Source: Eukaryota sp. GEM-RC1
Lineage: Eukaryota
Assembly: GCA_040285855.1 (NCBI GenBank)
Contig: JAUFOQ010000003.1
Coordinates: 1,302,001-1,366,000, forward strand
DNA: 64,000 bases
Direction: 5' to 3'
Of the stretch, positions 3,228-64,000 are shown piece after piece. Below the pieces are notes generated by a model that saw only the letters and a list, made by a program, of their open reading frames with translations, was not told the DNA's origin and made no database searches. Numbering within the stretch: the first letter of the stretch is position 1; the number at the start of each line of letters is the position of its first letter. The translations under genes were made by a program, and so were the position numbers.

Positions 3228-3284
3228 TGTTTATAAATAAAATAATATGATCTTGTAACACTTCACTAACACCTGTGGCTAACA
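3228..3284 (-). repeat. Shared short LTR between tandem gypsy copies (TGTT...AACA, 57 bp; inner boundary uncertain, could extend to about 3194)
   Basis: Identical to 9972-10028. Starts TGTTAG on the minus strand directly after a polypurine tract (GAAAGAAGAGAAGAGG) and the integrase stop codon. TGTT/AACA terminal inverted repeat. Confidence 0.75.
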
Positions 3285-7500: not shown

Positions 7501-9921
7501 TAGCTTATCATCCTCAGTTTTGAGACGATGATCCCATCTAAGAACAAGTTCATTCAAAGCAATAATTCCTTTGTCAGGATTCAGTGTTTCTAACATCAAC
7601 TCGGCTACTGTGGAAGCAGGGACCTTTGTTCGGACAGTTTCATCACTCGACGTAGCTATTATCGCCATGGAACATTTGAGAACGCTAATTACGCCACGGA
7701 GGTATCGGTCAAAGCACTCAGCAGGGTCTTTGGAGCTACCCAATCTTATTTCTTTAATTGCATCAATGGCTGTTGTAGTTGATGAGTATTGACTCTTGTT
7801 AATCAATAAACGCCAGATGTTTTGTTCAAGTACCTGACTACTGTTGTTATTACCAATCAGATCTAACATTTTCCAATCATTCAAAGTCGTTTGATCTATG
7901 AAATGACTAATGCCAGCTGGATCAATTTCACACAATGCTGTCCTAGCAAGGTCGAATTTGTTCAAAGGAGTACCAATCCAGAGGTCATAATCGAAACGTT
8001 CAGTTTGTTTTCTGACATGAATGGCCCAATGAAAGAAGTCATGAATAAACTTCACAACCTCATAACGAGTGTCGTTTTTCAAGAACGGCTCTCTGTCTTT
8101 TTTCTTCTTGATCTTCTTGGGAGGAGTCACACCAGATGAGAGAATAACAGAATCATGAAGGACATTGTCAGGACGTTCATCTTCAGAGGATTGACTAAGA
8201 TCGATGTGATTTTCAATCGATGGAGACAAATCAGGAAACTTGTTTGATTGTCTATCTCTTTCTGCTTTGGTTTTGTTGGCTTTAGCAATCAACTCGTTTC
8301 TATGTCGAATTTTCGGTTCTTCGAGTTCTTTTTTCGACATGACTGTTGATTCTTGGTTCAAATCACGAGTGAAGTTCTCGGTCACACGGTAAACGTTTTC
8401 ATGTTCTTCACTGGCAACAAACCGATCAACGTCTCCAAATTCTCCATCAAACTTTCTAGTTGAGAGAATATCACGTGAACCATCAGTGAAGCGGTCAACA
8501 GATTCTGGACGGAAAGGTTCACCAGGAACGTGAGCAGAAAGGCGAGCAGTTTGACGTAGCTCTTCAGGCTTGGGAAGAAGTGTACCAACTTCTCGTAAAG
8601 CACCATGAGCAACAGGAAGGACCTTTTGAGATCCGCCAATGCCACTAAACTGTTGGACAACCACAGAACCTTCATCAGGAACAGCTAAGGTCGTGTTTGA
8701 TGCTTCAAAGGTTGACTGTGGAAGGTTTTCATATCTATGACCAACGGGAAGGTGTCTAGAACTAACAGCAACGTTGTGATACGCCTTGACTTGATTGCTC
8801 AAGCTTTGACAATACCACGCTAAGTAAGCATACGTAACGTATCTGCCATCGGCATCGAAACTAGGTTCCAATGGTTCAATCAAGATACCATGACGAGGAT
8901 CCCATGAGTAATCCGAGGGATAACGATACGTATCCCCAGCATCTCCATCATACAAATCACCCAGAAAGCGTTCAATAACTTGAGGGGAAATACCTGGAGG
9001 AACGTTCCTCAACAGATAGTGCCGTCTTTTAGGCATACGGTTGCGGATGACAGGATGCCAAGGAGCGAACTTCGCCAAGTGCCACATGTCGTAATCAGAG
9101 ATACCAACGCTGTTGTCTTGTGGACTTACCCAGGGTATGAGTCTATTTGGGATAGCATCCTTATGGAAGTGCTGTTCCTCAATAGACCCAACTAGCTTTT
9201 CGACTTTGTTGCCTCGATCTTCTGGAGAGAGACTCATCTTACGAGCTAGAAGTTCCTTTTCAACAAGAAGCTTCTGTTCTGCTTCGAGTCTTCTAGACTG
9301 CTCTTTGGCGAGAGATTCCTGTAACTTGCGAATCTCTTCAACCACTTCAGTTGACCTCTTTTGAGGAACTGGAACAACATCGGGAATGCTTTCTTTATTA
9401 AAACTATTTCTACGAGGAAGAATAGGGAGAGGAGACGCTGTTACAACAACATCATGACTCTCGGAATGCGGAGTACTGCTACTGTCAGCATCGCTTACTC
9501 TATACTTCTCTAACAAGCTTGGGATACGGTCTGAAATTACAGAGGGAGTATCCAAACCCACTTCGCCATCCTTGCGGGAAGACGAAGTCCTTCCATCCTC
9601 AGATGGGCATCCACCTTCAGGTTGAACATCTACAACTCTACGAGAAGTAGATTCACCACCCTCAGGTGAGATTTCCGTCACCTCCTTGTGGGAAGTGGGG
9701 CTTCTATCCTCAGATAGGCATCCGTCCTCAGACAGGCATCCATCCTCAGGTGGGTCACTTTCAAATTCCGACGAGTCAACTGACTCTTCTGTCTCAGGAA
9801 CCAATGGCTCCATTCGACGGGAAGACACTTTGGAGCTAGACTTAGATCTAGTCAAAGGTTTGTTTCTACGATTAGTTTTGTTTCCCGCTTTTGGGGGGTT
9901 AGTAGTCCTTTTCTTCACCAT
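4564..9921 (-). CDS. Gag-Pol polyprotein (Gag with CCHC knuckle, aspartic protease, reverse transcriptase, RNase H)
   Basis: CFNCGKMGHYSTDC; FDSAAS; LDLPKAFWQ, FGLKNVP, YIDD; TDASD, KELYAI, TDH, ADMLSR. First ATG at 9921 (the ORF track starts at an upstream TTG). Confidence 0.93.
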   Translation of the reverse strand: MVKKRTTNPPKAGNKTNRRNKPLTRSKSSSKVSSRRMEPLVPETEESVDSSEFESDPPEDGCLSEDGCLSEDRSPTSHKEVTEISPEGGESTSRRVVDVQPEGGCPSEDGRTSSSRKDGEVGLDTPSVISDRIPSLLEKYRVSDADSSSTPHSESHDVVVTASPLPILPRRNSFNKESIPDVVPVPQKRSTEVVEEIRKLQESLAKEQSRRLEAEQKLLVEKELLARKMSLSPEDRGNKVEKLVGSIEEQHFHKDAIPNRLIPWVSPQDNSVGISDYDMWHLAKFAPWHPVIRNRMPKRRHYLLRNVPPGISPQVIERFLGDLYDGDAGDTYRYPSDYSWDPRHGILIEPLEPSFDADGRYVTYAYLAWYCQSLSNQVKAYHNVAVSSRHLPVGHRYENLPQSTFEASNTTLAVPDEGSVVVQQFSGIGGSQKVLPVAHGALREVGTLLPKPEELRQTARLSAHVPGEPFRPESVDRFTDGSRDILSTRKFDGEFGDVDRFVASEEHENVYRVTENFTRDLNQESTVMSKKELEEPKIRHRNELIAKANKTKAERDRQSNKFPDLSPSIENHIDLSQSSEDERPDNVLHDSVILSSGVTPPKKIKKKKDREPFLKNDTRYEVVKFIHDFFHWAIHVRKQTERFDYDLWIGTPLNKFDLARTALCEIDPAGISHFIDQTTLNDWKMLDLIGNNNSSQVLEQNIWRLLINKSQYSSTTTAIDAIKEIRLGSSKDPAECFDRYLRGVISVLKCSMAIIATSSDETVRTKVPASTVAELMLETLNPDKGIIALNELVLRWDHRLKTEDDKLPQFFQEVRSIWTTYKRSTAVKSLSTPSSRFPSRNRRNRPNTANKPHSQSSHGTPGDVKSTVKCFNCGKMGHYSTDCRSKPQSDSDKKSNKRRSGDSRSQSFSRRFSSNKQQNNYIFRLATNNTSRDNHTTPHKYMNPLAALNTHSSKGRSTSSVETIRSLNQNLGFDSKGKGPLCIRLLINNVPVVGEFDSAASCSVISQDLIRYCEMTTTDSCIEYISANNIRATSLGSAIGVLTFNVGSLANQIHVKHTLPVVPGTKILLIGRDLQEELGLLSDDGLVIRLDKEHSTILNAESEFDERMRSPSISINRVQSKCSIKPNSTHFTIDQYGNTQLDIDLFEETIDNSGCTIELDDSTRRTELLSLLSKYKQVFSEDIHPDGIDCPPMTIPFYDESVTVFRPPRRLNPEKQRIAEEIFNELIRQGWAVPSTGKFSSPIVLVVYNDHRKPRLTGDFSGLDGINANTRPVKPNLPRICDVLEFLSKANFIGTLDLPKAFWQLNVAEEDVEKTSVSIPGMSISFKRACFGLKNVPAIFQNIMKEIFNVEGVFIYIDDIIVVGNTFEEFISRINLVLERAERFRVRIGLKKCRFTTSRHPNKILGSNFCNKTRCIDDKRVSALIELPAPSTLPEVRSLLGALNYVREWIPNYSNLTASINKLTRGKPKKIVWTKDHDALLTQLKSEIINHMALDLPDTDKNIIISTDASDIAVGGVIWQEENPPAPPGTPLEERRVRPVSFYSRLLNDSQQNCAAIQKELYAILLILTESSLEGFLLSRHLTIFTDHRNLAYLISAPEKNRIVKRWIPIFSEFDFEIVHVAGTNNQWADMLSRVIDRRPVETIKSLTISNLSIKKDLTLSHEGLLYDDADYVEMLPRDSNVLAIKCLRNLSTDNKLPLFDSWLSTIRSEQSKAIEQGDQLFNGSTLCTMSNVYMNSKNKILIPSSLIKKVLYMLHGLVQSGHPNKKRSLEMLFNSGYFWPEYES

Positions 9922-9971
9922 CTTGGACAATAATTATTGATACCGTTTGGCTACAAAGGGTAGGGAAAAGA

Positions 9972-10028
9972 TGTTTATAAATAAAATAATATGATCTTGT
10001 AACACTTCACTAACACCTGTGGCTAACA
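9972..10028 (-). repeat. 5' LTR of the gypsy array (outer end at 10028)
   Basis: Identity with 3228-3284 ends exactly after ...GGCTAACA at 10028. Confidence 0.8.
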
Positions 10029-10029
10029 A

Positions 10030-10074
10030 TACAACATTTGGTGATACAACATTTGTAACTACAACATTTGGTGA
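10030..10074. repeat. Three 15-bp-period repeats with core TACAACATTTG
   Basis: Core at 10030, 10045 and 10060, immediately outside the LTR end. Confidence 0.9.
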
Positions 10075-10193
10075 GAATCAATCTCAATCAACGTGTCGTT
10101 TGTGTATTGAATTGTTGTTGCTCATAATTTTTTCTTCTATATATAATGTCGTTAAACACAACCAATACAATATACAATCTCAATTTATCAAAC

Positions 10194-12648
10194 TTAACTA
10201 ACACTACTATATCCCCCCATCACCCTCGCAAACATCACAGCCAACGAAAACGACTCCTTATATCCAATCCCACAACAATACTCACACATCACTTCACGAA
10301 ATTCCTCCAATATTCCCAAACACTGTTCATCACAAGCCAATTCATCATTTAAATCTAGTATCGACACAACAAAAGTATTGGTCAACGACAACACATTAAA
10401 GTACTTGTCCCTATCATTCAAATGAAAACTCAAAATTTTGGCCATCAATAAATTTAAATCTTTTAACAACTGAAGTTTCAAACTCATATGTGATTGACAT
10501 TCTGATGTTGAATCATTTTGGTTCCAATGCAGTGGTACAATATCGTGGACAATTGTTAGAATCTTTGTTTCTGTCTGCATGGCAATACTATGAGTATTGT
10601 TCAAATTGTTTTCAAAATCTGTCTGAAGACCAAGTGAATTTGGTAATCTGTTGATAGATTCAGTGACCTCATGATCTGTAACTTTTTTTGATAATTTCAA
10701 ACTAGGTAAATTCGAATTTGGTTTGAGAGTATTTCGAGACAATAGATTTGGTCTCAATTTAGGCAAAGTAGTAACTTTGGTTGTTTTTTTCAGTTTTGGA
10801 ACAGGCTTGTTAAAAATTAAATCAGAATTGATGGCACTTACACTTTGACCATTGAGACACTCATCTTCATCATCATTCACAACAAAATCATTCATACTAG
10901 ACGACGCATCGTCATCATCATCAGTTTCATCATCTCCACTATCACTTCCAGAGACAACAACTTCATTATCGAATAATTCTAAAACTGAATCAGAAGTGGT
11001 ATTCAAATTTTGAATTTTTGGAACATCTTCCACCAAATCTTCCTCAATTTCTTCATTGACTGGATCAAGAACATCAACAGTTTCCATACTTTCACCAACA
11101 ATAGAAATAATATTGGACGAAAATTCATCAAAAGTTTTCAACACAGAAGGCCAATTTCTAACAATTCTTTCATCTTCTAATGGCAAAGGATAAAGAGGTT
11201 TAGTAACCGGTCGACAGGGGTGAAAAGTGGAATAATACCACTGATAAAGGTCAATTCTTGGTTTGGGAAATCTAGAAGAAATATCTAAAATTTTAATTGA
11301 GTTCCAGTTCTTCACCCTACTCAATGTAACGTACAATTGGGCATATTCCCAAAAATTTAATGATACTTCAATTCCTTCAATTGTTAGTCCCTGAGATCTA
11401 TGGACTGTTATTGCCCAACAAGAACGAAGAGGATATTGCAATCGGTATGCTATAATTACAGGCTTTTTTCTTCTCATTCAACACCTCAATTTCAAATTTA
11501 GTCGGAATAATTTTGATTGGTTCTTCGTCCCTCCCGAATCTTACATTAATGAAATGTGAAGTTTCTGAAAAATCAATAATTTTGCCTTTTGACCCATTTA
11601 CTAGGCCCAGATCTGGTTTGTTTTGAGTAAACATTACCAAACCCCCGACGACACAGTGAAATTTTTGTTCGGCAAAATCGTTTAGCCTACTTGATAATTT
11701 TTTTACATTTAAATCAACAGCCTTTTCCATTTGTTCCTCATTAGGCTTACCAAATGCCCAACTTTTAACAATTTCTGATTTAATTAAGGGTTCATTGAAC
11801 TTATCGAGGGAATGAAATTCAACATTTTCATTCCCTTGTTCACATAATAATTCAAATTGCTTTAAATTTTCGTCGGCGACATCCTTGTTTCTAGCAAATA
11901 ATTTGGTTGGACTTTCAATATTTTTGGCTAATGACTTATGTTTCAATAAAATATGTTTCATATAGTCATCAAAAAGTCCGAGACGTATTTCATTCAAAAA
12001 ATTATAAAAATTGACATCACCTTGTTGTCGGATACTTCCAGATAATTCAATAAAATTTAAATTCAAGTCCTTCCAAGACTGTGATGAAAACGTAAAGTCT
12101 GAAAGTTGAAGAACAGTCCGTGTGTTTGAATCAGATTTTACAATTGGTGCAAGTTGCAAAAAATCACCAAATATTACAACTTGAAGTCCACCAAATGGTA
12201 ACTGAGACTTCAGTAAATCTTTAAATATATCTGATGCTCTGTTGAATAGTTCAGCAGTCAACATTGAAATTTCATCAATAACAAGCATTGAATTTCGAGC
12301 ACTTATAGTTCTTAAAACAGATTTAACACTCGAAGGCATAGACCGAATGACATCAGATATTGGTTTTTCATTACGGATAAAATTATAACCAAAGAGAGAG
12401 TGTAGTGTTTGACCACCAAAGACAGTTGAAGCAACACCAGTAGTAGCAGTAAAAAAGACATGGCCACCTGGTCTCATTATCTTGGAACCCGCATTAGACC
12501 ACCACTGTTTAAGACAGTACAGTAGGTAAGACTTGCCCGATCCGGCACCACCAGTAATGAAGAAATTCTTACGCTTAGAAGGTCTTGCATGAGTAATAGC
12601 TTGGAAGACCTGAGCCTGTTCGTCTGTAAGTGTGTTGATAATGGACAT
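10194..12648 (-). CDS. PIF1-family (SF1B) DNA helicase with long acidic/unknown C-terminal extension; one frameshift near 11470
   Basis: Motif I GGAGSGKS, TATTGVAS, GQTLHS, motif II IDEISM, PFGGLQVVIFGDFLQLAP, IRQ, NGSKG; second frame continues RLQYPL...AITVHRSQGLT, QLYVTLSRV. Confidence 0.92.
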
Positions 12649-13102
12649 TGAGTGTGTGAAGTGGTGATGTTTAAGATGCAGATTGTGCAGGGAAACTTTC
12701 CTTTCACTATAATTTATATATCTACCTCCACTTTATGGAAAATGCTGGTCGTACATAATTCTTAGAAGCTTGTTCTATCATGATGAGCTTTCTATCGTCT
12801 CATATGTCAAATTATATGTCTATGTAAAACGTGATGTTGGTGCTGAGATTGAGCTTGATGACAAGCAATGTTTCTTGTCCTTGGACTACTTTCGAGCACT
12901 TCAACACATATCCGAGTCTTTTAAAGTCACCCCCTTGGTCTTACAAATCAAACATGAGATCTCTCTCCTAGCCCTCGTTGATGCCATTCTATCTGAAGAC
13001 AAGGTATCTTCTGCTTCTGTTTCACTAAATCCAAGGTAATTCCTCCTCCTCCCTACACAGCTGATGTTCCTCGTAGAAGTAGAACACCCCGATTTGTGTT
13101 CT

Positions 13103-13709
13103 CTATATGTCGAATGTAATCTCCTTATTGCTATTTGTTATAAAATACAACTGTTCTTTATACTTAAACAATGAATCAATGAAACTCACAAACTCCTTGT
13201 CACAATCTGCATCACATTCACAAATCTCATTCACATCAAACAAGTTGAACAACGAAGACACCCTTTTAACAACAACGGACATGTCAACAAACTCCTCATC
13301 TTGACTGTTCTCACACATAAGTATTATATCTGTCAATGTTTCAGAACATCCTGTAAACTCTTGGAATACTTCAGTAAGTAACAATTCCCTACATTCATCA
13401 CCATTCAAGGATAGTAGCAAAACTGTCAATACTTTAACTAGACACTGTCGATCATTAATACTCCAAAGAAATTCGGAAATCCATGGTACCCTTTTTAAGA
13501 TCATCTGGTAAGTCAGATGTTGACACTTCCGTTATGTGGATGGATTTAGTTCTCCATGAATTGTATGTTCCATAAGGAAGAAGAACAAGTGACAAATTAA
13601 CTGCATGCTTATCAGCAAGCTTTACAACAAGTTTCATATATGTTTTGATGGTACGGGAACGACTTTCTTGTTCAGAAGTATTTCTGAGTTTGAAGATTGA
13701 GTAGGACAT
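13103..13709 (-). CDS. Hypothetical protein (two overlapping ORFs, probably one frameshifted gene) inside the PIF1/Fanzor region
   Basis: ORFs 13455-13709 and 13103-13504 overlap at an A run; no recognisable motif. Confidence 0.35.
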
Positions 13710-13856
13710 GGGAAATTCTGGTATAGACTTTATTACAGATTTCGTTTTTTAACACGTGAATTCACACACACATGTCCATTACAGTCTGTGTGGGATTTCA
13801 TTTTCCTTCCTCCTACAGTATAAATGTCGTTTGTTCTGCATCCAAACAGATGTTGT

Positions 13857-14116
13857 CCGCCATCCTGTCCTTATCTGACTCAACTTGTGACTGTTTCCAT
13901 TGCACGGTTTCGGGCTCAGTTGAGTTTAGATAAGGACAGTTCTTCTCCCTCCACTGCCGTTGCTTCTCCCTCTACTGCCGTTGCTGTGATGACTGCCGTT
14001 GCTTTCCCCACTGCCGTTGCTGTGATGATGCCGCCATTCTGTCCTTATCTGACTCAACTTGTGACTGACTCCTTTGCACGGTTTCGGGCTCAGTTGAGTT
14101 TAGATAAGGACAGTTC
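13857..14116 (+). repeat. Direct repeat of an approximately 86-bp unit, each containing a 75-nt hairpin, separated by ACTGCCGTTGCT minirepeats
   Basis: Units at 13857-13942 and 14031-14116. CTGTCCTTATCT...AGATAAGGACAG forms a perfect 12-bp inverted repeat, with further inner stems. Confidence 0.9.
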
Positions 14117-14150
14117 ATTCTGTGTTTTATCAACACATACATTTGTTGCC

Positions 14151-17100
14151 ATGAAGTACTCGTCTCCCCTGTTTATCCCTTCCCATCCTCCGTTCCCAAA
14201 AGACCTCACCGCTGATGGTGATATTGAATCCAATCCAGGACCCGTAACTCAAGAAGCCATAAACTCAGTTTATCCTCATCAATGGGTTGATGACGAAGCG
14301 ATAGTGGAGTACTGTAAAGTGATATTTCAAGAAGCAGAGTTAGACTTTGAAAGCATGTTTATCCATCCGACCACATGGCTTCAATACATTGTTTCACCAG
14401 ATGTCCCGCTAGATCAATGGTTGTTGACGAAAATTCAGCGAAATCAAAGAACAAACTCCAAATACCTCTTTGTTCCCCTTAGTGATACCATGACTAGAAA
14501 TGCTAATTATTCCAGAGAAGGTGTCACTGGTTCTCATTGGGGTTTAGCCATTATAGACTGTTGTGAAAAGGAATGGATCTTCATTGATCCAATGTTAACT
14601 AGCGAAGATATGAGTAAGTCTATGGTAAAATCAGCTGTAGACATATTATCCGAAGTACTTGTGCCATGGGGGTATGTTTTCCGTTATGTGCCTGTGACTA
14701 AAACACAGTCTGCTAACGACTGTGGAGTTTATGTCATTGCGTATATTCAAAAATATGTTGAACTTTTTAAAAGACTCACGTATGTTCCGTCTCTGATGTA
14801 TTTGGAAACTTATTTGGTCCAAGTGAACAATGAACTTCAAGCAGACATATTTCGTGAAAAAATTCTGGATGTATTGTCTCAACAAAGGACACTTTATCTG
14901 CAACAACGTCAAACCACAGTAGCTCCTATTGTACCATCGTTACCCATTCAACCTCCTGCCGGTGAAGAACGTCCAACCACTTCAATTCCTCTCACAGGTT
15001 CACGTCTTGCTAGCACTAAAACATCTACTGGTTTAAGCACTAAAAAAAGTAAGCCCAAAATTTCTGATATTCCATCACCACGAGGTTCACCTTTAATTCA
15101 ACGAAATAAATTTAGAACTACCAGCTCCCTTGTTTCAACTGGTGACACTCCAATACGAAAGACTCACCGCCGTATGTCCACATTGGAATCATCTGAAGTA
15201 ACATCATCTGAATTACCTCCATCACCATCTGAATTACCACCATCTGAACTACCACCAAAATCACAGGCCTCCATTATGTCGTATCCATTGCCAATTCAAA
15301 AGAAATTCATAATATGGAAGTAAATCTACACACTGAGCCTATCGAACAAGAAATACAAATTCAAGACTTTCTTAAATCCCCTCTTCTTTGGAATAATCTT
15401 CCCACTTTTTGTTTAATTGACGTTCAAAGTGATTTTGCCAAAAAGAAAGAATTAATGGCAGAAATGTTCAACTTGTTCAAGAAGATGATGATGACATTGA
15501 AACTGTTGAAGGTGAAGCTGAAGATCAATTCGAAGTTAAACGTGATTCTTCTGTTGATCCGATTGTATCAATTTCCATCCAGATCATTGATCACAATGAG
15601 TTTAATGAAAAACATTTATTTTCTCATGGCAATTTTGATACTACAAACTTGGATTTGTGTACTTTACATATTTCAGATAGTGAATCCAGTATGCTTAAAA
15701 ACTTCATCTCCTTCATTACTCAACATTGTCCACGATTGTTTGTGAGTTATGACTTTCACTTAGATACATTTCCCTTTCTTTTATCACGTTGTAAAGTCCT
15801 CAAAATCAATACAACGTTTACTTTTCCAGAATTTAAACCCTATATTCCCTTTTGGTTCAACAAATGGTGTAAGGAAACAACTTTTGGTCCGTTTTTTAGT
15901 CTCGATTTGAATGCTGTACTGAAGAATTTTTATGTCTTTACTGGTGGCCGTTTTTTGGAAAATGTTGTTCAAATTTTTCTTGAAATGAATAATTTTTCTA
16001 AAAATGAAACTGTCAAACGCTTGGAAGTACTTTATCATGACTCTGATCCTGATGAAGTTCAATTGGTCAATAATGTCCAAAACTTACATGGCATAATTGA
16101 CAGTATTAATGTTTTAGTTCCAGACAATCCCAAAGTGAAGGTCGATAAGATTGAAAAGAAATTTGTAAAAAATTTGGAGAAAGTAAATGAACTTTGGGCC
16201 AAGGAATCGACAAAACCGCTATTGTTGATCAACTCAATTCAACAATTACCTCTGATTGAGTACTTGTTGGCTGACCTATTGGATCCCAAAAAGCAAACAT
16301 TACGTTCAAAGTCACCAATGAAAGTGGTTAAGAAACGACTGGACAATGTTGTATCCAAAGCGAAGGTTAAATTTATTGAATCTCGTGTTAAGAGAGCTCA
16401 CCAAGTAAGAGTCCGTAGTACTCTCTTTTTGAAACATTTTTTTGTTCATAATTTTCACCATTCAGGTATTTTAGGTTACATTTAGAAGTTACTGCCTGCT
16501 GTTTCAAATGTAACTGTTAAGGAAGAAATGAATTCTGATACAGATGAGTCAACTGAAGAAGAAACAGATGTACATTCAGAGTCTATCGATGCTACTGCTC
16601 CTCCCGTTAAATTAGAAAATATTGAAGATGCGAGTGGTGAACCTGAACCTGACCTTTGGACTAGAATTCAAACTACCAAAATTGAATTGCCAGACTGGAA
16701 GAATTTTTTTACGTTGAAATCAATGGAACAAGTGTTGTCTATGATGACGATTAGGGACCACAAACTTGTAAACAATCAGAATCATATTGAGACTGTAAAA
16801 GAGTCTTTAGAAAACATAATTTCTAACACAAATGATGGCCCAACTCAAAATCAGTTTGCTCAACATTTCTTGATGCATTACATTCCTCGTTTAGAAATAG
16901 CTGCTCGATCTGTTGGACTTGATAGGATTGTGTTTCCCAGTAGTCATCGTTTATCTCCTATATTGCATTACATGGCTACAGAAATTATTACAAATTACAA
17001 GACTAACATGAGTGAACACTTTCACGAATATGTTTTTCAAGTATTTAATTTGGTTACCCTGAAAAAAGATAGACTTAACAAGCTTAGTGATAAGAATCAA

Positions 17101-19260
17101 CGACAAGAGTTGTGTACAAAGCTTAATGAAGTCAGACAGTTGATCATTAATGGGGAAATTTCAAAAATTAATTTTCAAGATGTTGAAGTGTTTCCTGATC
17201 CCAATTCTAGAGAGAGAGATGTTTATTCGGCACCCAATAAGGTAACCTTTCTACAAACTATAAACTCCCAATTCTAGACTGAGTTTACTATTTTTTAATT
17301 ATTTGTTTACTTTTTTTGAAGGTAAAATGGAGAAAACAATCTATTATGCTGAAAAAGTAGATCCTTTGAAATTCTTAAGTCATGCAGTGTATTTAAAACG
17401 TCTTGTTGAAGACTCTTGTACTGGTGTTACTGCCAATAATCCTTTTCCTCTGACAAAATCATTGATTCCTAATCATATCAGATTGGATACTACATGGTTT
17501 AAAAAAGTTTATGCATCAGAAATTAAAGGTAGCTTTGATGACGTTCGAAAAGATATTGGCACTCAGTTTTGAAACCAAAGTTTCTTCCAAAGTCATTGTC
17601 TCATGACTTCAAATACAGTTCTATTTCTACAGATGGAGTTAGCTGTAGTTTAATGATGATGCGGAAAGATCTGCTTGATGGGAGAGGAAATCCTCATAAG
17701 AAGGTGAAAGCTGTTGACTACACAGCTACTGAAAGGTACATTGATTCTTTGAGTTCCACAGAAATTCAAAACTTAAATTTGAAATCAAAAAGAATTGTTG
17801 CTATTGATCCTAATCAGCATGATTTGATGTATTGTGCTTCTTTAAAATCTAAGGAGGAAAAGAAAATCGAAGGTTTCGATACATCAGCCAATCTCAGAAG
17901 AAGAACGATTTGTCCAAAATCGTCAAAGAAAAAAAGGAAGCTTGAAAAAATTAAAAAAGGAATTGAAGGATTGGAAAGACGCACCTACTATTGACAAACC
18001 ATCAACTGTCAAGTTGAAAAATCGAGACAATTGGAAAGTATTCAGATACACTGCTGGGGAACGCAATGCCGATATTAAAAAGTCTCCATGGAAAAGAAAA
18101 AAACAAGGAAGGAAAGAAAAAGAGCTAAGAGAAAGAAGAGGAAGCTGGAGAAGAAAATAAGACGATACAATCTCCACCGTTTATCTGAATCCGAACGGTT
18201 ACAACAATATTCTACTCAATTTATTCACATTCCAGATGGCAGACGCATTGACATAAATGGGCAACAAATTTTAGATCAATGGGGCTCTAACTCGCCAGGC
18301 AGTAGATCTTGTGATTTGACTCAGTATTCTGATTTTGTTCTTGGTAAAGAAATTACCTGTTCTTTATTACGATCACCCACTACTGATCAAAGAACTACTG
18401 AAGGAATTTACGAAGAAAAGTGGTTTAGGAGGAATCGTCTCACACAGTATTCAAGAAAGGAACGAAGTGAGAAAAACATGCTTCACAGATTTGCTCTCCA
18501 ATTTGGTAACCCAGATGAAGTCGTTGTTGGGTATGGAGACTGGAACGACACTACTTTTCGTCGAAGAAGAGGTAAAGCATCTACTGTAAAAGGTGCTTCA
18601 ATTCGGAAATTATTGGGAAAATTTGGATTTAAAGTGTTCCTAGTTGATGAATTTAAGACCAGCAAATGTTGCTCTGCATGTGTTTCCAGAAACGACGAAG
18701 GTATCTGTTCCAATCCTGAAAGGATAAAAGTCACTGATCCTCATTGGAAGAAGAAGTTACAGAAGGAAGAGAAAAGAATTAAAAAAGGAAATTATGGAAC
18801 ACAATCAATTAGACAATATTGTGGAGCGTAACTTTGAAAAGAATGGACAGACCAGTTGCCATTTTCGAAAGAAAGATTGAAGAACAACAAAGTCTCACCA
18901 TGGGGCTTAGTTGAATGTGCTAAATGTCATGTCCTCTGGAATAGAGACTTCAACTCTGCTATCAATATTTACAATATTGTAAATGGAACCATTCAAGGTC
19001 AAGGTAGACCTGCCATCCTCGAGAGACCAAAATCTCAAACAACACCTGTTGTGGATGGCGGGAATACAGATCAGATTCCTAAGAAAAAGACTGTGAGTAA
19101 GGGTAAGGGTAAGGCAAAACGTCCTCCAACAACTGTCAGAGGTCCTAACAAGTGTCGTATATGTTCTCAACCTGGACATAACAAAACAACTTGTCCAAAT
19201 AAGCCTAAGAAAGATGTACCCAAGGACTCACACGTAAACCAGAAAGATCAGGAATCTTGA
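14151..19260 (+). CDS. Putative multidomain Fanzor1 polyprotein: 2A peptide, Ulp1/SENP8-like protease, PolB exonuclease-like domain, Fanzor (RuvC), CCHC knuckle; broken by frameshifts, two in-frame TAGs and/or introns
   Basis: Consecutive same-strand ORFs join at homopolymer runs. Domain motifs are listed in the sub-features. The upstream in-frame ATG at 13824 is an alternative start. Confidence 0.7.
14202..14243 (+). other. 2A / StopGo ribosomal skipping peptide
   Basis: DLTADGDIESNPGP matches the D(V/I)ExNPG|P consensus with the typical upstream L..xGD. Confidence 0.9.
14244..14880 (+). other. Ulp1/C48 cysteine protease domain (SENP8/DEN1-like)
   Basis: WVDDEAI, LFVPLSD...GSHWGLAII, FIDP, QSANDCGVYV: His-Asp-Gln-Cys catalytic motifs intact. 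Confidence 0.88.
15390..16010 (+). other. Family-B DNA polymerase 3'-5' exonuclease-like domain, probably catalytically degenerate
   Basis: Across two frames: FCLIDVQ (ExoI DxE changed to DxQ), DPIVSISI, ESSMLKNFISFITQHCPRLFVSYDFHLDTFPFLLSRC (ExoII-like), FSLDL, FLENVVQIFL. Confidence 0.6.
16290..19030 (+). other. Fanzor1 (eukaryotic TnpB homologue) domain region
   Basis: N-terminal VVKKRL...VKRAHQ...TLFLK; PFPLTKSLIPNHIRLDT; ISTDGVSCSL; RuvC-I AIDPN (D at 17806); FRYT; YGDW; RuvC-II VDEFKTSKCCSAC (E at 18649); CAKC and RuvC-III WNRDFNSAINI (D at 18946). Confidence 0.92.
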
Positions 19261-19394
19261 ATCTATGAAGTTAGCTCGTCTTAAAAGACTTTGCGAATGA
19301 GGACATTTATTTGTTCAAACTGTGGGTTTTGCTCTATGAGATCATGAAAATGTGAAGGGTTATGCCCTTATGCATTTGGAATGAAATTCACAGT
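19246..19394 (+). ncRNA. Putative Fanzor omegaRNA scaffold
   Basis: Directly 3' of the Fanzor ORF. Hand-predicted stems: GTCTT/AAGAC (19278-19289), GGACA/TGTTC (19301-19316), ACTGTGGGTTTT/GAAATTCACAGT (19319-19330 with 19383-19394), AAATGTGAAGGG/CCCTTATGCATTT (19348-19377). Confidence 0.6.
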
Positions 19395-19449
19395 AGTAAG
19401 GTAGAAGACAATTTCAATGGGAAATTTGAACTTTGAGGATGTTGATTAG
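19395..19449 (+). mobile_element. 3'-terminal coding fragment of the CRE-like non-LTR retroelement
   Basis: Reads KVEDNF...GNLNFEDVD*, compared with KVGENFQLGNLDFEDIDY* at 39837-39895 (minus strand); nucleotide similarity is also visible. Confidence 0.75.
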
Positions 19450-19793
19450 AGTGTTTAATTCTGACGCGTACGTGTTTCGTTCGAGAAAAACAATGATCAA
19501 AAAAAACTAAGTGTACAAAGTTTACTTAGTGAACTATATTTTACAGATACGGAGTCAAATAATTGAAGAAACATTGTACTACTCGAATTAAATAAATTCT
19601 AAAATAACTAAGCCTATCGAAAATTGAGCCAACAGAAGTAAATAAATACAACCTTGGCATCAGTCTAGGACCAAAACAAAAAAGAATCTAATCAGATACT
19701 AATCAACGACTAAATCTCACGTAATACAAAACCAAAAAGCATCATATTCTCAACTTCAATCAATATTGAACAGAGACATAAAAAACCACAAAA

Positions 19794-22700
19794 TCACGAA
19801 TTCCGTCCAAGTTCTTTCATTGTTTCATCCTTTAACTTGTTACAAATCTCATAAAACAGTGCAGACTCCCGATGTTCATGCTTCTTTGGAGTACTACTAT
19901 TAGACCTGGGAATGGGATGAGGTTTAGGTAAAACCAATGAGGGAGAGTGAAGAACAGAAGGAGAGGGAGCAAATCGTTCTGAGGAAGGAACCCAAGGACT
20001 TGAAGGAGATTTACTTTTCTCCAAATTAAAATTAGCCTTTTGTAATTCTCTAACTCTACTCTGCAGCTCATCAACAGCAGACCTTTTCGAGGAACGTACA
20101 CGTGACCTTGATTGGCTCACATAGGGTGTATACGAGTGGACAGCGGGTGAGCTGTCAGTTATAGACTGTACTGTAGACTCCAATTCAGAGATACGTTTTC
20201 TAGACAACTTCAACTCTTCAAGAATGGGACTAGTAACACTGTGTTCTGAACTTCTGGTACTTCTAAAGGAAGATCTTAAATCACTGATAGAATTACGTAA
20301 ATCAAGAATTACTTCATCACGGTCTTGAAGATCCTCTTTACACGTCATCAAACGACGACGGAGGATGTCAACTGTAGCGTCACTTTCACCTCTGAGAGCT
20401 TCTAAGGCATTAATTTGAGCTTTAAGATCGAAAATTTGAGAATTTAAAATTTTTGTTTGGGAAGATGTTGACTCAAGATTCACAAATACCTGGTGATAAT
20501 CGTGTTCCAGTTCATGATACTTCTCTGTCAATTTAGCTAACTGACGCGAGGAATCCTTGTGGGAAGCTAACCGTGCCTTCAAGTCTTCAATTGCCATTGA
20601 CTTCTTTTCAACAGCGGCTGTACATTCTTGAATATAAGCTAATAATTTGTTTTTGGACTCAGACAAACCTTCTACCCTGTTACATAGAGCATCAGAGTTC
20701 TTTCTTTCTTCTAGTAAAAGCTGACTTAGAGAACGATTGGAGCTTTCTAATTGTAACACTTTGGTGGATAATTCAGAAATCGAAGATGATAGTTTTAGGC
20801 TTTCAAAGCGAAGTTTCTTTTGTTCAGCGTTGTTATCATCGTTGATAGCTGATAATGATTGTTTGGAATCAGAAAGTGATGAGATTCGATCCCTTAGTGA
20901 TTGGTTTCGAGTTCGTTCCCGTTGAAGTTTCTGATCGGCATCTTCTTGAATTTTTGAAATTTCATGAGACTTTTGTTGAAGTTGATGTTTAAAGTCCAAG
21001 ATAGACTTATCATGATCCTTACGTAGTTGATTTAAATTTTCGCTTAAATTTGAGATCTCAGAGTCTTTTTCTTCGATTAAGTCCTCTAATTCAACTTTAA
21101 CTTCAGTAATTGTTTTAATTTGTTCAACAATTTCAGACAGATATTGGTTCGTTCTGTGAGCTTCAGAATCTTTTTCACTAATTGTAGATTCCAAATCTTG
21201 AATAATTGATTCATAATTTGAAAGTTGAGTTTTTAATTCAGTCAATGAGTGATCATTTCCATCAGTAATAGATTTTAATTTCAAAGAAAGAGACGAAATT
21301 TCATCGTCTTTTTCTGACAACAATTGTTCCAAATTCAGTTTTTCTTTGATAATGTGTTGAATTTTACAAGTCAACAAGGAATGAGAATTTGGTGGTAACG
21401 AAGCAGTTTCATTGGGCATTTCAGGTAAATTATCTTGAATTTCGAATAATTCGGCTTCTTTTTCAGATATTTCAGTTTTGAGATTTGAAATTGCAGACTC
21501 GTAACTATTCAATTGGTCTTTTAACTGGGAAACTGTGGCAGATTCTTCACTACGTAGTTCACTCAAATTTTGGCTCAAATTTGAAATTTCTGTATCTTTT
21601 TCTTCAATTAATTCCTCTAATTCAATTTTTACTTCAGTAACTGCTTTAATTTGATCTACAATTTCAGAAAGATGAACGTTAGTCCTGCGAGCTTCAGAAT
21701 CTTTTTCACTAATTGTGGATTCCAAATCTTGAATAATTGATTCGTGATTTGAAAGTTGAGTTTTTAATTCAGTCAATGAGTGGTCATTTACATCAGTAAT
21801 AGATTTTAATTTCAAAGAAAGAGATGAAATTTCATCGTCTTTTTCTGACAACAATTGTTCCAAATTAAGTTTTTCTTTGACCATGTGTTGAATTTTACAA
21901 GTCAATAATGAATGAGAATTTGGTGGTAACGAGGCGGTTTCATTGGGAATTTCAGGTAAATTATCTTGAATTTCTAATAATTCGGCTTCTTTTTGAGCTA
22001 TTTCAGTTTTGAGATTTGAAATTGCTGACTCATAACTATTCAATTGGTCTTTTAACTGGGAAACTGTGGCAGAATCTTCACTACGTAGTTGACTCAAATT
22101 TTGCCTCAAATTTGAAATTTCTGTATCTTTTTCTTCAAGTAACTTCTCCAACTCAGATTTAGCTTCAGTAACTGCTTTAATTTGATCTACAATTCCAGAC
22201 AACTTTTGATCGGATTGTTGAGCTTCAGAATCTTTTCACTAATTGTAGATTCCAAATCTTGAATAAGGGCTTCATAATTTAAAAGTTGAGTTTTTAATTC
22301 AGTCAATGAGTGGTCATTTCCATCAGTAATAGATTTTAATTTCAAAGAAAGAGACGAAATTTCATCGTCTTTTTCTGACAACAATTGTTCCAAATTAAGT
22401 TTTTCTTTGATAATGTGTTGAATTTTACAAGTCAACAATGAATGAGAATTTGGTGGTAACGAGGCGGTTTCATCAGGCATTTCAGGTAAATTATCTTGAA
22501 TTTCTAAAAATTCGGCTTCTTTTTGAGCTATTTCAGCTTTGAGATTGGAAATTGTAGACTCGTAACTATTCAATTGGTCTTTTAACTGGGAAACTGTTGC
22601 AGAATCTTCACTACGTAGTTGACTCAAATTTGAAATTTCTGTATCTTTTTCTTCAAGTAACTTCTCCAACTCAGTTTTAGCTTCAGTAACTGCTTTAATT

Positions 22701-25700
22701 TGATCTACAATTCCAGACAACTTTTGATCGGATTGTTGAACTTCAGAATCTTTTTCACTAATTGTAGATTCCAAATCTTGAATAAGGGCTTCATAATTTA
22801 AAAGTTGAGTTTTTAATTCAGTCAATGAGTGGTCATTTCCATCAGTAATAGATTTTAATTTCAAAGAAAGAGATGAAATTTGATCGTCTTTTTCTGACAA
22901 CAATTGTTCCAAATTCAGTTTTTCTTTGATAATGTGTTGAATTTTACCAGTCAACAATAAATGAGAATTTGGTGGTAACGAAGCGGTTTCATTGGGCATT
23001 TCAGGTAAATTATCTTGAATTTCGAATAATTCGGCTTCTTTTTGAGCTATTTCAGCTTTGAGATTGGAAATTGCAGACTCGTAACTATTCAATTGGTCTT
23101 TTAACTGGGAAACTGCGGCAGAATCTTCACTACGTAGTTGACTCAAATTTGAAATTTCTGTATCTTTTTCTCCAAGTAACTTCTCCAACTCAGTTTTAGC
23201 TTCAGTAACTGCTTTAATTTGATCTACAATTCCAGACAGCTTGTGATCGGATTGTTGAACTTCAGAATCTTTTTCACTAATTGTAGATTCCAAATCTTGA
23301 ATAAGGGCTTCATAATTTAAAAGTTGAGTTTTTAATTCAGTCAATGAGTGGTCATTTCCATCAGTAATAGATTTTAATTTCAAAGAAAGAGACGAAATTT
23401 CATCGTCTTTTTCTGACAACAATTGTTCCAAATTAAGTTTTTCTTTGATAATGTGTTGAATTTTACAAGTCAACAATGAATGAGAATTTGGTGGCAACGA
23501 AGCGGTTTCATCAGGCATTTCAGGTAAATTATCTTGAATTTCTAAAAATTCGGCTTCTTTTGAGCTATTTCAGCTTTGAGATTGGAAATTGCAGACTCGT
23601 AACTATTCAATTGGTCTTTGAACTGGGAAACTGTGGCAGAATCTTCACTACGTAGTTGACTCCAAATTTGAAATTTCTGTATCTTTTTCTTCAAGTAACT
23701 TCTCCAACTCAGTTTTAGCTTCAGTAACTGCTTTAATTTGATCTACAATTCCAGACAACTTTTGATCGGATTGTTGAACTTCAGAATCTTTTTCACTAAT
23801 TGTAGATTCCAAATCTTGAATAAGGGCTTCATAATTTAAAAGTTGAGTTTTTAATTCAGTCAATGAGTGGTCATTTCCATCAGTAATAGATTTTAATTTC
23901 AAAGAAAGAGATGAAATTTGATCGTCTTTTTCTGACAACAATTGTTCCAAATTAAGTTTTTCGTCACTATCAACGGCAATTCTTTGATTCATCGACTGTT
24001 TTTCCTTTTGAATTAATTCAGATAATTTAGAATTTTCCAGTTCCTTTTCAGCCAATTCAGCCTTTAATTCTTCTAAATCCACAGACGAATCAGTAACTAC
24101 TTGGTTTTTAAAATTTGCCAATGTAGAAATCTCTGCAACTAACCTCTGAGGAACAGTTCCTCTTGTTCTAATTTCAGTAATTAAATCAGTAAAATACTGA
24201 GAAACACTAGAAAGTTCATCTGATTGCGCTTCTAGTTTACTAACTTGGTCATCAAAATCAACGATATTTGTCTCTAAATACAGTGAATCTAATTGAGATC
24301 TGACTTGATCTAATTGTTGATCATTTGCTGAGAGAGATTGTTTTAAGAAAGTTATCACGTGTGATGGAGAAAGTGAAGAACAATCTAAAGGAGGGGTATT
24401 TGAATTGTCTTGAATTTCTAATAATTCGGCTTCTTTTTGAGCTATTTCAGCTTTGAGATTGGAAATTGCAGACTCGTAACTATTCAATTGGTCTTTTAAC
24501 TGGGAAACTGTGACAGAATCTTCACTACGTAGTTGACTCAAATTTTGACTCAAATTTGAAATTTCTGTATCTTTTTCTTCAAGTAACTTCTCCAACTCAG
24601 TTTTAGCTTCAGTAACTGCTTTAATTTGATCTACAATTCCAGACAACTTTTGATCGGATTGTTGAACTTCAGAATCTTTTTCACTAATTGTAGATTCCAA
24701 ATCTTGAATAAGGGCTTCATAATTTAAAAGTTGAGTTTTTAATTCAGTCAATGAGTGGTCATTTCCATCAGTAATAGATTTTAATTTCAAAGAAAGAGAT
24801 GAAATTTGATCGTCTTTTTCTGACAACAATTGTTCCAAATTAAGTTTTTCGTCACTATCAACGGCAATTCTTTGATTCATCGACTGTTTTTCCTTTTGAA
24901 TTAATTCAGATAATTTAGAATTTTCCAGTTCCTTTTCAGCCAATTCAGCCTTTAATTCTTCTAAATCCACAGACGAATCAGTAACTACTTGGTTTTTAAA
25001 ATTTGCCAATGTAGAAATCTCTGCAACTAACCTCTGAGGAACAGTTCCTCTTGTTCTAATTTCAGTAATTAAATCAGTAAAATACTGAGAAACACTAGAA
25101 AGTTCATCTGATTGCGCTTCTAGTTTACTAACTTGGTCATCAAAATCAACGATATTTGTCTCTAAATACAGTGAATCTAATTGAGATCTGACTTGATCTA
25201 ATTGTTGATCATTTGCTGAGAGAGATTGTTTTAAGAAAGTTATCACGTGTGATGGAGAAAGTGAAGAACAATCTAAAGGAGGGGTATTTGAATTGTCTTG
25301 AATTTCTAATAATTCGGCTTCTTTTTGAGCTATTTCAGCTTTGAGATTGGAAATTGCAGACTCGTAACTATTCAATTGGTCTTTTAACTGGGAAACTGTG
25401 ACAGAATCTTCACTACGTAGTTGACTCAAATTTTGACTCAAATTTGAAATTTCTGTATCTTTTTCTTCAAGTAACTTTTCCAACTCAGTTTTAGCTTCAG
25501 TAACTGCTTTAATTTGATCTACAATTCCAGACAACTTTTGATCGGATTGTTGAACTTCAGAATCTTTTTCACTAATTGTAGATTCCAAATCTTGAATAAG
25601 TGCTTCATAATTTGAAAGTTGAGTTTTTAATTCAGTCAATGAGTGGTCATTTCCATCAGTAATAGATTTTAATTTCAAAGAAAGAGACGAAATTTCATCG

Positions 25701-28283
25701 TCTTTTTCTGACAACAATTGTTCCAAATTCAGTTTTTCGTCACTAACAATGGCAATTCTTTGATTCATCGACTGTTTTTCCTTTTGAATTAATTCAGATA
25801 ATTTAGAATTTTCCTGCTCCTTTTCAGCCAATTCAGCCTTTAATTCTTCTAAATCCACAGACGAATCAGTATCTACATGGTTTTTAAAATTTCCTAATGC
25901 AGAAATCTCTGCAACTAACCTCTGAGGAACAGTTCCTTTTGTTCTAATTTCAGTAATTAAATCAGTAAAATACTGAGAAACACTAGAAAGTTCATCTGAT
26001 TGCGCTTCTAGTTTACTAACTTGGTCATCAAAATCAACGATATTTGTCTCTAAATACAGTGAATCTAATTGAGATCTGACTTGATCTAATTGTTGATCAT
26101 TTGCTGAGAGAGATTGTTTCAGAAAAGTTATCACGTGTGATGGAGAAAGTGAAGAACAATCTAAAGGAGAGCTGTTTGAATTATCTTGAATTTCTAATAA
26201 TTCAGCTTCTTTTGAGCTATTTCAGCTTTGAGATTGGAAATTGCAGACTCGTAACTATTCAATTGGTCTTTTAACTGGGAAACTGTGGCAGAATCTTCAC
26301 TACGTAGTTGACTCCAAATTTGAAATTTCTGTATCTTTTTCTTCAAGTAACTTTTCCAACTCAGTTTTAGCTTCAGTAACTGCTTTAATTTGATCTACAA
26401 TTCCAGACAACTTTTGATCGGATTGTTGCACTTCAGAATCTTTTTCACTAATTGTAGATTCTAAATCTTGAATAAGTGCTTCATAATTTGAAAGTTGAGT
26501 TTTTAATTCAGTCAATGAGTGGTCATTTCCATCAGTAATAGATTTTAATTTCAAAGAAAGAGACGAAATTTCATCGTCTTTTTCTGACAACAATTGTTCC
26601 AAATTCAGTTTTTCGTCACTAACAACGGCAATTCTTTGATTCATCGACTGTTTTTCCTTTTGAATTAATTCAGATAATTTGGAATTTTCCAGCTCCTTTT
26701 CAGCCAATTCAGCCTTTAATTTTTCTAAATCCACAGACGATTCAGTAACTACTTGGTTTTTAAAATTTCCTAAATCAGAAATCTCTGCAACTAACCTCTG
26801 AGGAACAGTTCCTTTTGTTCTAATTTCAGTAATTAAATCAGTAAAATACTGAGAAACACTAGAAAGTTCATCTGATTGCGCTTCTAGTTTACTAACTTGG
26901 TCATCAAAATCAACGATATTTGTCTCTAAATACAGGGAATCTAATTGAGATCTGACTTGATCTAATTGTTGATCATTTGCTGAGAGAGATTGTTTCAGGA
27001 AAGTTATCACGTGTGATGGAGAAAGTGAAGAACAATCTAAAGGAGGGGTATTTGAATTATCTTGAATATCTAATAATTCAGCTTCTTTTTGAGCTATTTC
27101 AGCTTTGAGATTGGAAATTGCAGACTCGTAACTATTCAATTGGTCTTTTAACTGGGAAACTGTGGCAGAATTTTCACTACGTAGTTGACTCAAATTTGAA
27201 ATTTCTGTATCTTTTTCTTCAAGTAACTTTTCCAACTCAGTTTTAGCTTCAGTAAGAACTTGAATCTGACTTAAATATTCTTCTCCACTGACTGAATCAT
27301 CGCCATCGCCACTTACTTCTGTAGCAATCGACATCTCACCTGCCTGTTTAGAAATCTGATTAAAATGATTACCCCAATCACGTGACTGTCTAGGTGTCTT
27401 AGCCAAAGAAAAGAAAAGACAAATCGTCATCATCGCTAGCTGCTAACTGTTGTTCCAACTCAGCGATCCTATTACTTGCCTTAACAAGTTCTTGACCACG
27501 TTTTTTTAATGTTGATTCAGTTTCGTCAAGTTTAAAAACCAAAGAATTCCGTTCCTGAACTACAGCACGTGATTTAGTATGAATTCTCTTGACTTCTGCC
27601 TCTAGTTCTGACACTCTGTTCTGAAGAGCAGTATTTTCATTAACAACTCCTTGGTAGAGTTCATTCTTTTCACTTAACTGAACACGTAAAGAACGTTGTT
27701 CAACGTCTAAAAAGCGGGTTCTGGCCTCTTCTCGTTCTGATTCAAGGATGCTGGAGGAATCAAGATGGTTCAAAGAGGGTATACAGTAGCAAGTGAAGAG
27801 GCGGTAATGAGGAAGGTCTGAGATGGGAGTTCTGGTAAGACATAGAGTTGAGAGCGAACAAGATTTAGAGAGATGTTGGACTTCACGCAGAGAAGTTATG
27901 GGGTTTCCGGAAAGTCGGAGTTCTGTAAGAGATTTGAGTTTGGAAAGAGATGGTGGGATATGAGAAATGTGGTTGTCGTTTAGAATCAATATTTCAATAG
28001 AGGTAAGAGCCTGGATGTTATCAAAGCATGTGATTCTGTTTAATGAGAGGTCCAGTAGTCTTAGACCTGGGAGAATGCCAGAAAGTGAAGTTATGGCATG
28101 ATCATTGATGATTAATTCACGAAGGTTTGGCAGTAAGTGTAGGTTCTCTATTGTACGGATGTAGTGGTTATCAGAATGTTGACGTTTGAACACGAGACGT
28201 GAAGATTCCTTCAGGGTGTCTGAAGTTTGACTTGTGGCACGGATAAGAAGATCATTTGTGAGGTAACGAGTTTGCTCAGACAT
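19794..28283 (-). CDS. Large N-terminal LRR plus coiled-coil repeat protein (centriolin-like architecture), split by homopolymer frameshifts
   Basis: SDS22-type LRRs and LRRcap (YRLF...IPSLNHLD...ER) in 27399-28283, then heptad-rich tandem repeats and a unique C-terminus. Confidence 0.7.
21040..27255 (-). repeat. Intragenic tandem repeats: four units of 876-888 bp and about five units of 519-531 bp sharing a common core
   Basis: Landmarks at 24081/24969/25857/26733 and 21421/21952/22482/23001/23520. Confidence 0.9.
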
Positions 28284-30118: not shown

Positions 30119-31128
30119 CTATGTTCGGAGTCACCTCAACACGTGTTGGCCCAACACGTGTTGCAACACGTGTTGAATGGTGTTGGTCAGAACTTCAACA
30201 CGTGTTGGATATGTCATTCTTCTATGTCACTTCAATGAAATTGGCTAAATTTCTACTGTTCTTGATAAAACTATATTGATTAAAGGTAGAAAATTCAAGT
30301 TTACTCCAAAGTTTAGTTAAATGCAGGCTTGGCACTTGATAAAAAACGTTTAAAACGTATTTTGATAAAAACGACGTTTTTTATTCTTGTCAACGTTTTT
30401 TATATTCTGAATTGACACAAAAAGCACGACTTTCTACTCCATTTTTGTCTTAATGTGATAGGTGTTATGTCATGTATGTTGTTTCTGACCAAGAAAGACT
30501 GAAACAACACAAGAGTATTTGTTGGTGACACTATTGCCGGTACAGTATATGATCTTTGGTTCTGTATCTGAGTGGAACGACCTTCAGGTACACCCGGACA
30601 GTGTTCTTGTTGCATATACATTGTTATCTTCCCGTCCTGACCACGTGATCACCGTCAGATGAGCATTGTACTTCATCTCCATGGTGTTATCCTTCCAATG
30701 TCAAAAGAACATAGCTGCAATGATCGAACTATGAAAGATTTGGGTGATGAAAATGAAGTGAGAAAAAAGTGAAAAGTTGAAAAAGTTGATCTGCCCTTTT
30801 TGAACGTTTTTTATTTAATTCGAAAAAAACGTAAAAAACGATAAAAAACGTCGTTTTTTATTTTTGAGCAACGTTTTTTACAAGCCTGGTTAAATGTATG
30901 GATTATTGATGAGCTTTTCATGTTATCAGTTCTGGAATCGTTTAAAATCAGTTCCAATTTATCAACTTGATTCGGGTGTAACATGAGTGAAAAATAGATG
31001 TGTTTTTCTGTTGGTTGATCTTAAAGTGAGTTATTCTGTTCTTCTGCTCAGAAGTTATTCAACACGTGTTGGCGCCAACACGCAACACGTGTTGAATATT
31101 TTCCAACACCGTGTTGAACCGAACATAG
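30119..31128. mobile_element. Non-autonomous hAT-like element with 8-bp TSD GTTAACAC
   Basis: TIR CTATGTTCGG...CCGAACATAG; TSD at 30111-30118 and 31129-31136; subterminal CAACACGTGTTG palindromes. Confidence 0.85.
30324..30888. mobile_element. Nested non-autonomous hAT-like element with 8-bp TSD GTTAAATG
   Basis: TIR CAGGCTTG...CAAGCCTG; TSD at 30316-30323 and 30889-30896; subterminal AAAACG repeats. Confidence 0.88.
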
Positions 31129-63845: not shown

Positions 63846-64000
63846 TTTTATGTACATTCTGGATTTGTACTGAGAAATGGAATAAGAAAACATAATCAAA
63901 AATTTACTACAATCTAACTAAACAATCGTCACAGCGTACCAAGTTAAAAGTACAATAACTAACACTAACAACTACAAATGCAACAGTAATTCCTTGCTAA

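Follow-up and report, generated by a model that had tools for sequence, protein, structure and literature searches.

Does the DNA directly downstream of the Fanzor gene at this locus encode an omegaRNA scaffold, and does the mobile element end where the last stem of that scaffold closes? The question arose from a first-pass annotation of the window (the whole 64,000-nucleotide stretch of contig that was analysed), which described about 150 nt at 19246-19394 as an omegaRNA-like region packed with stems. We propose that 19261-19394 forms the right end of a Fanzor1 mobile element and codes for the element's omegaRNA scaffold, whose final helix would be 19319-19394; we put the probability of this reading at about 0.7. 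The element end and the scaffold/guide boundary would probably lie at 19394-19396. We infer the RNA role and the exact boundary, as the 5' half of the interval has no fold support and the gene of this copy is broken. The features of the locus are collected in Table 1.

Table 1. Features of the Fanzor1 locus in window coordinates, with the basis of each assignment
Feature	Position	Strand	Basis
N-terminal extension, same frame in sister copies	13824-16317	+	Pfam; sister proteins
DxExNPGP motif, taken to be 2A-like	14217-14243	+	Motif
Ulp1/C48 protease	about 14439-14762	+	Pfam PF02902
PolB-type 3'-5' exonuclease domain	about 15433-15972	+	Pfam PF03104; catalytic motifs degenerate in window family
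Fanzor1 coding region, broken in this copy	16318-19260	+	TDG motif, D-E-D RuvC triad, zinc finger, zinc-knuckle tail
67-nt frame-shifting insertion within a 12-13 nt direct duplication	17200-17278	+	Sequence
Stop codon of the Fanzor frame, 134 nt ahead of the stem's closure	19258-19260	+	C-terminus common with sister proteins
Presumed 5' scaffold half (SL1 region), fold ambiguous	19261-19318	+	z 0.05; competing folds
Long terminal stem-loop, likely the last omegaRNA scaffold stem	19319-19394	+	13 contiguous pairs; z -3.1; sense RNA favoured
Inner 30-nt hairpin within the terminal stem	19348-19377	+	Pair probabilities in four contexts; -10.6 kcal/mol when folded alone
Candidate guide, first 15-17 nt past the stem	19395-19411	+	Inferred from published 14-15 nt extensions (excerpts of PMC10432273)
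Repeat-family 3' tail (last codons, 3' UTR, A-run), right flank	19397-19508	+	blastn; profile

Published systems are described here from excerpts of the cited papers. Fanzor1 RNAs start near the stop codon, cross the right end of the element and carry a variable guide of 14-15 nt (PMC10432273). They are 75-150 nt long, and the three solved RNAs share a conserved 7-bp first stem-loop, SL1, followed by a freely varying region (PMC11423790); the last bases form a double-stranded stem without a pseudoknot (PMC10711439). The candidate omegaRNA lies 3' of the gene on the sense strand, its predicted stem closing 134 nt past the stop codon, and, as in the SpuFz1 omegaRNA of the Spu-1 element of Spizellomyces punctatus (PMC10432273; PDB 8GKH), the scaffold would occupy the space between stop codon and element end.

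The gene upstream of the stem is a true Fanzor1. A 644-aa sister protein, P0165, which is about 85% or more identical to the window by tblastn across the frame breaks, has both the TDG motif and the D-E-D triad; its sequence matches SpuFz1 at E 1.7e-15 and PpFz1 at E 2.3e-10, and SpuFz1, PpFz1 and GtFz1 were the sole matches to its structure model (pLDDT 76) at E <= 0.001. The glutamate of the triad stands just ahead of the zinc finger, and the third catalytic residue is the canonical D, where GtFz1 has N (PMC11423790, in excerpt). A search of protein representatives returned near-identical sister proteins (91-96% where they align) that fall into two clusters, one of 26 members and one of 5, under the NCBI label Eukaryota sp. 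GEM-RC1, together with more distant proteins labelled TZLM1-RC and TZLM3-RCL. We take all three labels to denote anaerobic metamonad flagellates. C-termini were compared in the 20 sister proteins listed (15 of the 26 and all 5 of the 5): 13 end as the window frame does and seven stop earlier, and none among the 20 reads through into the RNA region.

The first-pass annotation had placed the scaffold behind a "Fanzor ORF"; through P0165 and its SpuFz1 match the Fanzor identity stands, but the frame is not open. The coding sequence is spread over several frames, with about nine breaks between 15299 and 18840. Six of them fall in or beside A-runs; the others are the 67-nt insertion, whose inner part resembles 43821-43864, a stop codon at 16483 and a one-base shift close to 17555. 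An intron across 17200-17321 was considered and rejected, as none of the GT-AG pairs checked by hand restores the frame, which is restored by taking out the 67 nt within the duplication. In annotated sister proteins, too, breaks fall at A-runs of these kinds. Breaks of this kind reflect either slippage or long-read assembly error, so that more copies may be intact than the annotations suggest. The Fanzor gene of this copy appears dead.

We then consider the stem itself. All four stems named by the first-pass annotation pair as described, and the closing helix, given there as 12 bp with G-U pairs, runs to 13 contiguous pairs, 19319-19331 against 19382-19394, including four G-U pairs. Its pair probability is mostly above 0.8 in three of four folding contexts and falls to about 0.27 in the fourth (19200-19416), while the outer six pairs of the inner hairpin hold at 0.7-1.0 in all four. 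The predicted fold of the whole stem-loop reaches -24.1 kcal/mol, as low as which only 1 of 200 dinucleotide shuffles folded; a separate run of 60 shuffles gave z -3.5 for 19320-19399. Folded as RNA, the reverse strand reaches -14.7 kcal/mol and loses the closing helix, so that the G-U pairs favour sense over antisense RNA by 9 kcal/mol. As DNA the two strands are nearly symmetric (-10.3 versus -9.7 kcal/mol; z -2.7 and -2.4). An RNA fold that is biased to one strand, alongside a DNA fold about equal on both, favours a sense-strand RNA.

The 5' half of the presumed scaffold behaves differently from the 3' stem, and the description of the interval as packed with stems was overstated in this respect. 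For 19261-19318, 104 of 200 shuffles fold as low, and for the whole 149-nt interval 12 of 200 do (z -1.76). Folds at 19278-19289, 19301-19316, 19293-19314 and 19257-19318 compete; the first two, the small hairpins of the first-pass annotation, do pair but exchange with the alternatives according to context, at probabilities of 0.01-0.8, and neither is supported beyond shuffles. The SL1 region as a whole offers several rival folds of 5-9 bp, none of which beats shuffled sequence, and no clear 7-bp SL1; the conserved 7-bp SL1 of GtFz1 and PpFz1 (PMC11423790, in excerpt) has no clear counterpart here. A separate three-way-junction fold (z -4.1) was seen at about 19008-19063 (+), in the C-terminal coding tail of the Fanzor gene. 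It begins at an RP motif after the last RuvC helix, near the start of the first stem in related elements; the RNA could begin at about 19008, and would then be about 390 nt long.

Taken alone, the folding strength of the terminal stem is locally unexceptional. Within 10-20.8 kb, 19 of 540 80-nt windows reached z <= -3 in a scan with 25 shuffles, in which the windows over the terminal stem reached -2.83 at best and none passed -3. As low a fold was found in 24 of 3365 76-nt windows, 18 helices of at least 13 bp were found on the + strand in a helix scan, and stronger folds lie nearby at 13865-13939, 14039-14113 and about 19008-19063. An Rfam search of the interval gave chance matches only and no family match. 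These local counts, together with the unstructured 5' half, would suit a hairpin that is a chance fold in the 3' UTR, or a DNA-level end signal resembling a Helitron terminator, with no guide-RNA role. For a DNA signal one can also cite the fold of the stem as DNA on both strands, a junction (GTAG/T) one base off the CTRR end of Helitrons with a GC-rich hairpin upstream (PMC3627910, in excerpt), and a PIF1 helicase gene 6.6 kb upstream. That gene (10194-12648, -) is split by a frameshift and is divergent from the Fanzor unit, pointing away from it, and no Rep/HUH domain was found near it; PIF1, on the opposite strand, is the sole Helitron-like component, and GTAG/T differs from CTRR. The strand preference of the RNA fold, set against the near-symmetry of the DNA fold, also argues against a pure DNA signal, and a role in DNA would in any case be compatible with one in RNA. 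We consider a hairpin devoid of guide function unlikely.

Positional evidence comes from the right flank, 19397-19508, which matches 39841-39894 (-) by blastn (E 4.5e-5). It belongs to a repeat family that recurs three times elsewhere in the window, at 39.8, 51.3 and 62.6 kb, and when these three copies alone were combined in a profile and searched against 601 nt, the alignment began at 19398 (E 6e-7). The 60 nt upstream of the junction match none of the three copies (53, 100 and 34 of 100 shuffles were as good), yet across this point the 39.8 kb copy does match the 51.3 and 62.6 kb copies (1 and 0 of 100 shuffles scored equally well). The junction is therefore real and lies 2-3 nt past the helix, and the idea that the 3' arm of the stem belongs to the flank repeat was ruled out by the same upstream comparison. 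The first-pass annotation had the structure stopping at 19394 with retroelement sequence beginning there; the junction with a repeat is borne out, with homology starting at 19397-19398 and not at 19395. The four copies share an ORF end, a stop, a short UTR and an A-run. Their ORF carries CCHC and restriction-like endonuclease motifs, which we take to be features of non-LTR retrotransposons. It had no Pfam or PDB match and no RT was seen; the repeat is probably a non-LTR retrotransposon. The candidate guide could start at 19395, 19396 or 19397. It has no perfect second match within the window, and its best match in a sister repeat copy is 12 of 15 positions with an 8-nt seed.

Two features were noted beside the other copies of this repeat. 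At about 49850-50780, cutting off the 51 kb copy, lies what looks like a small TIR DNA transposon, with inverted ends bearing many GATCCG-type palindromes and an apparent 9-nt flanking duplication (judged by eye). A second, decayed PIF1 copy at 62215-63900 is interrupted by the repeat family at 62.6 kb.

The same flank allows for a different history, in which the stem is part of the scaffold region but the element does not end at 19394: a 5'-truncated retrotransposon would have inserted within the element's tail, or a deletion would have joined the two, and the true end would lie past 19508 or be lost. The family is common (four copies in 64 kb), its copy at 62.6 kb does interrupt a helicase remnant, and the 5' part of the repeat was not found to the left of the Fanzor gene. 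Against this, no target duplication was found flanking 19397-19508, and an insertion within 3 nt of the base of a 13-bp helix would have to be coincidental (a 12-bp helix closes at 3 of 600 random sites, as counted below). We regard such an insertion or deletion as rather unlikely and retain 19394-19396 as the probable end.

As a control, we examined how copy-defined right ends relate to stems in distant Fanzor1 families; a metagenome scan gave 80 distant loci and a viral scan 22, at 24-45% identity. Among the 80 metagenome loci, copies of the same family diverge sharply shortly past the stop codon. Right ends were set by eye for 26 loci belonging to five families, after exclusion of those that lacked a second copy, had too short a flank or duplicated another locus. 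A closing stem, defined as a helix of at least 6 bp within -6 to +4 nt of the end, was present at 21 of the 26 ends, in four of the five families, compared with 12-13% of random sites (28 of 208 drawn from these loci and 35 of 300 from the window). By this definition the window's stem counts with 12 pairs, a level reached by 3 of 26 true ends and by 3 of 600 random window sites, the latter figure being inflated by our having chosen the stem after looking. As the loci are also related and non-independent, the control figures show fit and not probability. The distance from stop to end, 134-136 nt in the window, lies inside the range of -1 to 145 nt seen in the five control families. One multi-copy metagenomic family with two subfamilies (L036, L042, L047, L048, L050 and L057) keeps its scaffold almost wholly inside the coding region, with the end -1 to +6 nt from the stop and sharply different flanks beyond it. 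Covariance models of families g5 (17 sequences, only 5 consensus pairs) and g3 (6 sequences), run over 10-30 kb, gave no match to 19246-19394 at E <= 10; both models are weak and distant, and the missing match is little evidence.

We next describe the remaining boundaries and the mobility machinery. A search of 9900-19900 revealed neither a terminal inverted repeat nor a target duplication nor a left end, and no transposase domain was found. A candidate inverted repeat at 13786-13803, resembling the inverted right end, was set aside as it is gapped and absent from an ungapped scan. Sister-copy DNA was found neither in viral contigs by protein search nor in the prokaryotic genomes searched, and a stem-pattern search of viral contigs gave 23 loci, none with a Fanzor match or a match longer than 15 nt. 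The PIF1 gene may be cargo of the same element. Directly to its left, 1-10032 (-) holds a tandem Ty3/Gypsy-type element, duplicated in part, with RT, RNase H, integrase and zinc knuckle, and small ORFs at 13103-13709 (-) had no Pfam match. On the other side, a very long coiled-coil gene (19794-27433, -) with internal repeats of about 0.5 and 0.9 kb is split into several ORFs and converges on the Fanzor unit. Further on, repeated perfect palindromes (CAACACGTGTTG core) forming helices of 13-16 bp lie at 30136-30208 and 31056-31098, upstream of an ADA2-like gene.

The protein proved more unusual than the RNA in its multi-domain architecture. In protein P0187, which is colinear with 14025-17112, the Ulp1/C48 protease is joined to the PolB-type exonuclease domain and to the N-terminus of Fanzor. 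P0010 and P0172 combine the DxExNPGP motif, the exonuclease and the whole Fanzor in single proteins of 1473-1479 aa, colinear with 15478-19026, with the exonuclease catalytic motifs intact; P0010 gave no protease match. Among the annotated proteins of the window's own family, none covers the complete multi-domain unit. Just upstream of the motif, an 86-nt unit is duplicated (13857-13942 and 14031-14116, +) at 95% identity, each copy forming a long hairpin (z -5.3 and -5.6) much stronger than the terminal stem; it had no Rfam match, and it is possibly a 5' RNA element or an end signal of the Fanzor unit. Literature searches combining Fanzor with these protists, the exonuclease, the protease or 2A turned up no paper on such a family or fusion, and the excerpts of PMC3627910, PMC10530073, PMC10711439, PMC13565253 and PMC10432273 contain no fusion of an exonuclease or protease to Fanzor.

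This architecture bears on a third account of the flank, in which the element always carries the retrotransposon tail, borrowed for copying by a retrotransposon enzyme and supplying a constant guide against the repeat family. The tail has the same orientation as the gene, abuts the stem and ends in an A-run, neither a transposase nor a terminal repeat was found, and the candidate guide has its 8-nt seed match in a sister repeat copy. The frame also carries the 2A-like motif, and such motifs occur in non-LTR retrotransposons. Excerpts of one further paper mention Fanzor only in DNA transposons (PMC6338049). We hold this third account highly improbable. If it were true, a Fanzor1 polyprotein unit comprising 2A-like motif, SUMO-type protease, proofreading-type exonuclease, nuclease and zinc knuckle, with a guide RNA that runs into a borrowed tail, reverse-transcribed and aimed permanently at that family, would be the first Fanzor known to be retro-mobilised and would serve as an RNA-guided weapon against transposons, though we think this a long shot.

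Returning to the preferred reading, that of an omegaRNA scaffold at the right end of a Fanzor1 element, several parallels and differences emerge from the excerpts of the published accounts. Like the SpuFz1 omegaRNA, the candidate is predicted to have a long last stem with its base abutting the guide, and the ghost loci of Spu-1 indicate that the RNA can persist without an intact gene, as it would here (PMC10432273). Unlike Spu-1, which has a 75-nt scaffold within 30-nt inverted repeats, the window has a candidate scaffold of about 134 nt and no inverted repeat was found; unlike SpuFz1, its protein has long N- and C-terminal extensions and its SL1 fold is ambiguous (PMC10432273). Between the 150-nt RNA of GtFz1 and the 75-nt RNA of PpFz1, the window's length fits the GtFz1 end (PMC11423790). 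The Fanzor1 reRNA of SfAV has a proposed three-stem shape with double-stranded terminal bases and no pseudoknot, as predicted here, but its stem arm consists of a TIR plus TSD, neither of which was found in the window, where the RNA is predicted from sequence (PMC10711439). MCi-2, MCi-5 and CRe-1/2/3 are likewise multi-copy Fanzor1 elements with no clear TIR and, in their case, a conserved 3' end; unlike them, the window revealed no Helitron Rep, Crypton or Harbinger transposase, and the protease and exonuclease fused to the window family's Fanzor go unmentioned for those elements in the excerpts (PMC3627910).

The course of events that we propose is drawn by analogy with SpuFz1, GtFz1, PpFz1 and the SfAV Fanzor1, and this applies to the element end as well as to transcription, binding and cutting. 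A transcript through the element end would be trimmed to scaffold plus guide, and the trimmed RNA would load into Fanzor1 made from an intact copy; as the gene beside it is apparently dead, any action of the RNA would be in trans. The complex may then cut the empty site beside a TAM, favouring restoration of the element. The simplest origin of the repeat flank would be insertion of the element into, or next to, the tail of a dead retrotransposon.

The RNA design suggested here is already known, and the interval is probably the omegaRNA end of a decayed copy. The fusion carries further implications, in that a Fanzor in frame with an exonuclease and a protease could couple cutting to end trimming or to de-SUMOylation of host proteins, a point of interest for the still-open question of how Fanzors serve the elements that carry them. 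The host branch consists of anaerobic protists, for which literature searches found no Fanzor report, and if our reading is right the locus would give scaffold and guide positions that can be tested in a high-copy Fanzor1 family.
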